DNA of 7,415 bases from a virus (Monodnaviria > Loebvirae > Hofneiviricota > Faserviricetes > Tubulavirales), in the IMG/VR virus record IMGVR_UViG_2648501390_000001; one strand, written 5' to 3'. Under the pieces are notes generated by a model. That model had not been told where the DNA came from and did no database searches. It saw nothing but the letters and a program-made list of their open reading frames with translations. Shown here piece by piece: positions 5,939 through 6,048 of this stretch (position 1 is the stretch's first letter; every line of letters starts with the position of its first letter). The position numbers and the translations under genes are program-made.

Positions 5939-5947
5939 GACAGAAGA

Positions 5948-6007
5948 GATACCGCTCGCCGCAAGTTTATGACCGAACGTAGTGAGCGAATAAACGAGGA
6001 AGCGGAA
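5948..6007 (+). other. Noncoding element in the gI-gIV spacer resembling the region downstream of the pMB1/ColE1 origin; candidate primosome-assembly site or complementary-strand origin
   Basis: GATACCGCTCGCCGCA (5948..5963), GACCGA (5971..5976), AGTGAGCGA (5981..5989) and CGAGGAAGCGGAA (5995..6007) occur in the same order as in pBR322/pUC-type vector sequence between the origin and the lac region, as I recall it. The match is from memory and not computed. Confidence 0.35.
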
Positions 6008-6048
6008 TGTCTTCATGACTGAAAAACAGCACTTACGCACGGTATAAC

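Follow-up and report, generated by a model that had tools for sequence, protein, structure and literature searches.

Gene organization of the prophage

We analyzed a 7,415-nucleotide stretch of viral DNA (IMG/VR record IMGVR_UViG_2648501390_000001), hereafter called the window. The gene order is of the inovirus type, and every gene listed lies on the + strand. Several small ORFs are also present. The principal features are as follows.

1–2001, + strand: rolling-circle initiator (Rep) of the Phage_GPA family (Pfam PF05840, E = 5.9e-49), away from the element described below
3075–4358, + strand: coat-protein-A-like protein
4727–5938, + strand: ORF of a Zot-like assembly ATPase, the gI equivalent (Pfam Zot, E = 3.1e-9), adjoining the spacer on its 5′ side
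5939–6048, + strand: noncoding spacer between the gI-like and gIV-like genes, delimited by the two ORFs
6049–7272, + strand: secretin, the gIV equivalent (Pfam Secretin, E = 9.8e-25), directly 3′ of the spacer

The initial annotation had stated that the gI and gIV equivalents are set apart by 110 noncoding bp, and the ORF limits bear this out, the first ending at 5938 and the second starting at 6049. In a 98% identical prophage, the RefSeq start of the secretin lies 9 nt later, so that the spacer measures 110–119 nt. The Phage_GPA family includes the P2 gene A protein.

A search of the window against deposited phage genomes gave no match, and no similarity to deposited inovirus genomes was found. 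More than 80% of the window was present as a chromosomal prophage in 19 of the 5426 complete E. coli genomes searched, and the junction of the zot-like and secretin genes with the element was found in 22 of them. A relative of the phage is carried by a Citrobacter youngae plasmid. Part of the window matched 1237 of the 5426 E. coli genomes at 80–99% identity, with most of the window in 19 only; this widespread part may be sequence beside dif, or a module common to other dif-integrated elements.

At 7326–7353, the window carries AGTGCGCATAATGTATATTATGTTAAAT, which is nearly identical to the E. coli dif site. Because the right end of the window holds this dif-like site, the prophage is probably integrated at dif via XerCD, like CTXphi-type phages, and the DNA to the right of the site is probably that of the host. 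The window opens at the Rep start codon. In E. coli E300010 (L296), the phage extends further upstream, and two minus-strand ORFs and noncoding DNA were found there. The 368 nt directly upstream of Rep had ordinary predicted structure (z = −0.6). At L296 1370–1470, approximately 1 kb upstream of the window start, two inverted dif-like sites flank a GC-rich hairpin; the 555-nt stretch at L296 1119–1673 showed extreme predicted single-stranded DNA structure (z = −7.9). This hairpin resembles the forked attP of CTXphi, and it looks like a Xer attachment hairpin and not an origin. It is situated between this prophage and a neighboring element whose Rep protein is different. In the window, a low-GC stretch at 2041–2153, inside the ORF at 2032–2457, also contains nested inverted repeats (12/12 and 14/16 matches), and the predicted single-stranded fold of this hairpin gave z = −2.8. 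These repeats are a candidate packaging signal or plus-strand origin.

The spacer is homologous to the block downstream of the ColE1/pMB1 origin

The initial annotation had pointed to three strings in the spacer, GATACCGCTCGCCGCA (5948–5963), AGTGAGCGA (5981–5989), and CGAGGAAGCGGAA (5995–6007), all of which are present at these places. It had further stated that they follow the same order in pBR322/pUC sequence. This pBR322-type sequence is present in plasmid records at 100% identity, one of which was used as a reference (L295). The computed alignment to ColE1-family plasmids revealed a significant, gapless similarity of approximately 94 nt, which defines the following element.

5949–6042, + strand: pas/ssiA-like element with full homology to ColE1-family plasmids (gapless alignment, blastn, and nhmmer, the last with the window itself among the seed sequences)

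As shown by the gapless alignments, positions 5949–6042 were identical to ColE1 (1306–1399) at 59 of 94 positions, to a pMB1-type plasmid at 57 of 94, and to a ColE1-like Citrobacter plasmid at 73 of 94, whereas the best of 300 shuffles of the query reached 47/94 against ColE1. In PLSDB, the spacer matched at least 5000 records by blastn, and the best ColE1-like plasmid among the matches listed was a Rop-encoding Citrobacter plasmid (E = 4e-14). The homology is collinear, but the register given for AGTGAGCGA was off; in the gapless register, the window sequence TAGTGAGCGAAT pairs with ColE1 TAGCGAGTCAGT and not with the later plasmid CAGTGAGCGAGG. The homology also reaches past the three strings to GCACTTACGC at 6029–6038, and the 24-nt spacing of this motif from the preceding GCGGAA is shared with ColE1. 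These results indicated homology between the spacer element and the RNA II-strand block that directly follows the ColE1/pMB1 origin.

The position of this block in the plasmid was read from the ColE1 record (L004). RNAI lies there on the minus strand at 645–749, which places RNA II on the plus strand, with the origin near 1195–1200. The homologous block (1306–1397) is on the RNA II strand, 110–200 nt beyond the origin, and thus on the strand displaced during primer extension by Pol I. Among 20 sampled loci, nine metagenome loci had an RNAI match, and the element was on the RNA II strand in seven of these, 620–680 nt after the RNA II start. Extension by Pol I has been described to expose n′-pas/ssiA a short way past the origin, as the site of lagging-strand primosome assembly by PriA (PMC3167613), and replication can originate at the sites close to the pBR322 origin (PMC8246471, citing Zipursky and Marians 1981). 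The position past the origin agrees with PMC3167613, in line with the statement in the initial annotation that PriA-dependent sites had been mapped to this plasmid region; the block is equated here with ssiA by its position relative to RNAI and the origin together with these two secondary sources.

The predicted hairpin of the element is maintained by compensatory changes

Copies of the element were gathered from viral, metagenome, and plasmid sources. Their comparison divided the element, all on the + strand, into the following parts.

5943–5947, + strand: GAAGA, which pairs with TCTTC at 6010–6014 in the predicted MFE fold of the single-stranded DNA and lengthens the basal stem in this phage
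5952–5963, + strand: 5′ base arm CCGCTCGCCGCA, nearly invariant in the family as judged from alignments of the copies
5965–5970, + strand: 5′ arm of the inner stem, GTTTAT, pairing with ATAAAC at 5990–5995 (copies, covariation)
5971–5989, + strand: apical loop of 19 nt, GACCGAACGTAGTGAGCGA, the same in inovirus and small-plasmid copies except for one variable base
5990–5995, + strand: 3′ arm of the inner stem, ATAAAC, covarying with 5965–5970
5996–6007, + strand: 3′ base arm GAGGAAGCGGAA, with AAGCGG at 6000–6005, invariant in ColE1, pMB1-type, small-plasmid, inovirus, and P2-like copies
6029–6038, + strand: conserved downstream motif GCACTTACGC, 24 nt past GCGGAA

In the predicted basal pairing, CCGCT pairs with AGCGG and CC with GG, and these pairs never varied among the copies. 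The apical module of the subfamily to which the window belongs is the invariant 19-nt GACCGAACGNAGTGAGCGA, an identity that was partly imposed by the search patterns; ColE1 carries GACCGAGCGTAGCGAGTCA in its place. In the apical loop and inner stem, this subfamily is nearer to small non-model plasmids (L002 and L003) than to ColE1. Downstream, ColE1 and the pMB1-type plasmid both carry CTTACGC at this spacing, and the P2-like copies described below contain CACTTACGC.

The inner stem, of 5–7 bp, varied in sequence while its pairing was kept. The variants included CTCAT/ATGAG, GACC/GGTC, GATC/GATC, GCCC/GGGC, TCGAT/ATCGA, and GTCAT/ATGAC, among others. For 23 distinct arm pairs, cognate inner arms had a mean of −4.45 kcal/mol versus −2.38 for non-cognate arms (permutation p = 2e-4). 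In a gapless alignment of 13 copies, four pairs of the inner stem were changed on both sides, and the covariation score was 0.187 versus 0.073 in shuffles, with none of 500 shuffles reaching the observed value; when the partners were slid by 1–3 columns, the score was at most 0.073. These results, therefore, indicated that the hairpin of the element is kept by compensatory changes. The hairpin that the initial annotation had proposed to look for on the + strand was predicted, but the predicted fold of the spacer alone was not unusually stable (z = −1.4).

Two other pairings were considered. The family consensus fold with DNA parameters favored a competing helix of invariant bases, CGCTCGCCG with CG..GTGAGCG; the architecture of base plus inner stem was preferred, as it is possible in the P2-like subfamily and the competing helix is not. 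This architecture is common to all subfamilies. A loop-to-tail pseudoknot, CGTAGTG with CACTTACG, seemed conceivable on inspection but was not adopted; its sole co-change (T to G in the loop and A to T in the tail) occurred in one lineage, and the other variants break the pairing. An Rfam scan of the whole window gave no match, as expected of a DNA element.

Position, copy number, and mosaicism in inoviruses

All 18 scored inovirus copies were located on the coding strand, with the zot-like gene on one side and the secretin gene on the other, and this position was held in relatives whose zot-like protein is down to 49% identical. Several relatives carry two or three tandem copies between these two genes, with a period of 339–340 bp, and three tandem copies were found in the lineages at 49% and 61% protein identity. 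The extra copies lie hundreds of bases from the secretin start. Tandem copies were seen in L001 (7323–8087), L010, L012, L013, and L015.

Copies were mosaic when the window was compared with L014, L009, and L007. One relative (L014), with a 99% identical zot-like gene, has the same tail as the window and a different inner stem; another (L009) has the same inner stem and a different tail. Such composition points to recombination of the copies with one another or with plasmid copies. The GenBank phage collection contained no inovirus with the element.

A sister subfamily follows gene A in P2-like phages

A looser scan of viral contigs yielded a third subfamily of the element (L271–L294, IMG/VR contigs of 20–39 kb; for example, L283 at 3866–3968). 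It has the same base arms and the CACTTACGC tail, together with a 7-bp inner stem, GCCCTGA/TCAGGGC, and a different apical module. These contigs are P2-like, with the gene A protein, Ogr, portal, and terminase present. Gene A and the element were found together in 18 loci, and in every one of these the element follows the gene downstream, with the strand unchanged, even where the A proteins are only 31–40% identical. No report of a primosome site in P2 or P2-like phages was found in the literature searched. In a contig resembling the Sodalis phage phiSG1 (L286, 8168–8397), a 230-nt stretch holds two divergent copies, one on each strand, that face each other.

The initial annotation had suggested that a PriA-type site would fit the phiX174-like initiator of the same genome. 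This agrees with the assignment of Rep to Phage_GPA and with the sister subfamily in P2-like prophages, which encode GPA-family initiators. Because the element follows gene A in those prophages and the initiator in the window belongs to the same Pfam family, a PriA site on the displaced strand would appear to accompany rolling-circle initiators of the GPA family or similar HUH type, namely in phiX174, the P2-like phages, and this inovirus.

A putative minus-strand origin

The initial annotation had named the spacer as a candidate PriA-type primosome assembly site or minus-strand origin. The proposal is supported by the homology to the ssiA block, the location on the coding strand, the hairpin with compensatory changes, and the conserved position. 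When the element was compared with the phiX174-type single-strand initiation signals, homology, strand and orientation, a maintained stem-loop, and AAGCGG were all found. The hexamer, proposed earlier as common with phiX174, is at 6000–6005 here and is also present in ColE1, and phiX174 has GAAGCGG in the F–G spacer, although the hexamer alone is weak evidence. It was reportedly recorded as shared in older literature; our literature search for AAGCGG returned primer sequences only. For comparison with the Ff-type origin primed by RNA polymerase, a promoter-like hairpin was sought and was not found by a weak consensus scan.

We consider it probable that the spacer contains a primosome assembly site that depends on PriA and is homologous to ColE1 ssiA, and that this site most likely serves as the complementary-strand (minus-strand) origin of the phage. 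The coding strand is taken to be the packaged strand, as in inoviruses generally. Since a ColE1-type site lies on the packaged strand, the phage probably primes its second strand by the host PriA primosome, like phiX174, and not by RNA polymerase, like M13. From these sequence comparisons, we infer PriA binding, primosome assembly, and a role as the main minus-strand origin, in the following order of events. The packaged + strand would enter the cell and be coated by SSB, and on it the element of approximately 94 nt would keep its fold, a long imperfect hairpin whose base arms and loop are conserved. PriA would bind the element, after which PriB, DnaT, DnaC–DnaB, and DnaG would assemble. Primase would then lay primers, and the Pol III holoenzyme would turn the circle into the replicative form. 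The same site would also prime the + strands displaced later by the GPA-type rolling-circle initiator.

Alternatively, the element may be a working primosome site that is auxiliary, acting on displaced + strands in RF-to-RF replication or in restart, with the infecting strand primed elsewhere, e.g., by RNA polymerase at a hairpin outside the window. The left end of the phage does lie beyond the window, structured DNA occurs both in the upstream stretch of E. coli E300010 and inside the ORF at 2032–2457, and ssi elements are dispensable in some plasmids (10.1101/2022.12.05.519187). However, the strongest upstream structure resembles a Xer attachment hairpin, the DNA directly upstream of Rep is not unusually structured, and the retention of the element's position in relatives, with two or three copies, suggests importance. 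We thus regard a purely auxiliary role as unlikely.

We give little credence to an RNA-level hairpin or leader controlling the secretin gene (gIV), e.g., by mRNA stability or attenuation. The element stands directly before the secretin start with its conserved tail abutting the codon, and the same hairpin would form in mRNA. Nevertheless, the same invariant bases are found past ColE1-type origins in thousands of plasmids with no secretin gene near, the element is also downstream of gene A in P2-like prophages, and the extra copies in relatives are remote from the secretin start. Moreover, a simple duplex consensus scan of 5700–6300, which is a weak test, detected no sigma-70 promoter-like or intrinsic-terminator-like site, and Rfam gave no match. 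The spacer itself thus shows no promoter-like or terminator-like site, which speaks against the possibility, raised in the initial annotation, that it acts merely as a gIV promoter or leader.

Very improbable, too, is that the element is passenger DNA acquired from a ColE1-like plasmid by recombination and functionless in the phage. The mosaic copies reflect frequent recombination, by which passenger sequence could spread likewise; 99% identical zot-like genes with different inner stems or tails indicate exchange with other copies, and the enterobacterial hosts are rich in plasmids that carry the element. Against this stand the same place and strand in lineages at 49–61% protein identity, the compensatory stem changes, the invariant loop and base arms, and the tandem amplification; small inovirus genomes seldom keep idle DNA. 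It is scarcely to be expected that the element is a packaging signal, i.e., a + strand hairpin that starts virion assembly, for although it is a + strand hairpin in a spacer beside the assembly genes, and Ff signals are imperfect, noncoding, orientation-dependent + strand hairpins, its conserved parts are shared with plasmids and P2-like phages that inovirus machinery does not package, and other hairpins in the window are available for that role. At a G4-type G site, DnaG primase recognizes a hairpin cluster directly, with no primosome; such a site appears less likely here because of the clear homology to the ColE1 ssiA block.

Comparison with known priming sites

With ColE1 ssiA (rriA), the factor Y (n′, PriA) effector site of the pBR322 L strand, the element shares the gapless homology of approximately 94 nt, the arms CCGCTCGCCGCA/GAGGAAGCGGAA, and the 24-nt spacing to CTTACGC. 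Both are on a strand that becomes single-stranded, which is the displaced strand of RNA II sense in the plasmid and the coding strand in the phage. The replicon differs, however, being a theta-replicating plasmid in one case and a filamentous phage in the other. Moreover, ssiA is a lagging-strand start, whereas the phage site would be a genome origin, the whole genome being single-stranded on entry.

The primosome site of phiX174 in the F–G spacer is similar in that a + strand hairpin, proposed to be recognized by PriA, occurs in a small single-stranded DNA phage that encodes an HUH initiator; both sites carry GAAGCGG and occupy a noncoding stretch flanked by structural genes. In contrast, no alignable homology extends past the short motif, and the virion type and phage family are different; blastn of the spacer against deposited phage genomes matched no genuine phiX174 genome.

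Filamentous phages are usually described with a complementary strand primed by RNA polymerase, following the Ff model, in which the minus-strand origin is a pair of hairpins mimicking a promoter. Like this phage, the Ff phages (M13/f1/fd) must start a complementary strand on the + strand that infects the cell. They differ in that their gI overlaps gIV and their origin is placed in the main intergenic region, whereas the spacer is present here without a promoter-like site. Engineered M13/f1 derivatives with cloned pas/ssi sites, which served to assay such sites, likewise place a ColE1-family pas on a filamentous + strand, and the 1981 assay of pBR322 sites by Zipursky and Marians is said to have used filamentous vectors. 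Those derivatives were built in the laboratory, whereas the present element belongs to a natural prophage lineage of E. coli and Citrobacter. The literature searched contained no link of inoviruses with PriA or primosome sites. What would be new is a primosome site of the ColE1 ssiA family in a natural filamentous phage; the mechanism itself is classical.

A natural lineage with a plasmid-type PriA site would represent a second priming strategy among filamentous phages, and it would connect the way in which dif-integrating prophages become established in E. coli and Citrobacter with the host machinery for replication restart. More tentatively, and with somewhat more doubt than confidence, we propose that one modular hairpin cassette may serve many enterobacterial replicons with an exposed single strand as their shared point of entry for PriA, and move among them by recombination. 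Its base arms would be fixed, its inner stem and apical module exchangeable, and its tail CACTTACGC; the replicons that possibly share it would be ColE1-like and other small plasmids, P2-like prophages, and this inovirus lineage. If this holds, inoviruses and P2-like phages with GPA-family initiators would, like phiX174, need the restart primosome of the host, replication would be tuned by tandem copy number, and the priA, priB, and dnaT status of the host, or defenses that sense hairpins, would set host range. The comparisons also show that a replication element defined 40 years ago in cloning vectors is a widespread, mobile, and structurally constrained module of plasmids, inoviruses, and P2-like phages.

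Detection of the element in sequence collections

For annotation, the element offers a concrete signature for locating single-strand origins, which are almost never annotated. A loose-pattern scan of genome contigs mainly returned chance matches in GC-rich genomes, and only L092, L108, and L115 were retained as real. Four IMG/VR proviral contigs (L261, L263, L264, and L265) end exactly 3 nt past the match to the zot-like gene and thus lack both the element and the secretin gene. Such ends look like trimming of predicted proviruses at gene boundaries, which would hide the element in catalogues. In a Citrobacter record, one of the tandem repeat units is annotated as a hypothetical protein.
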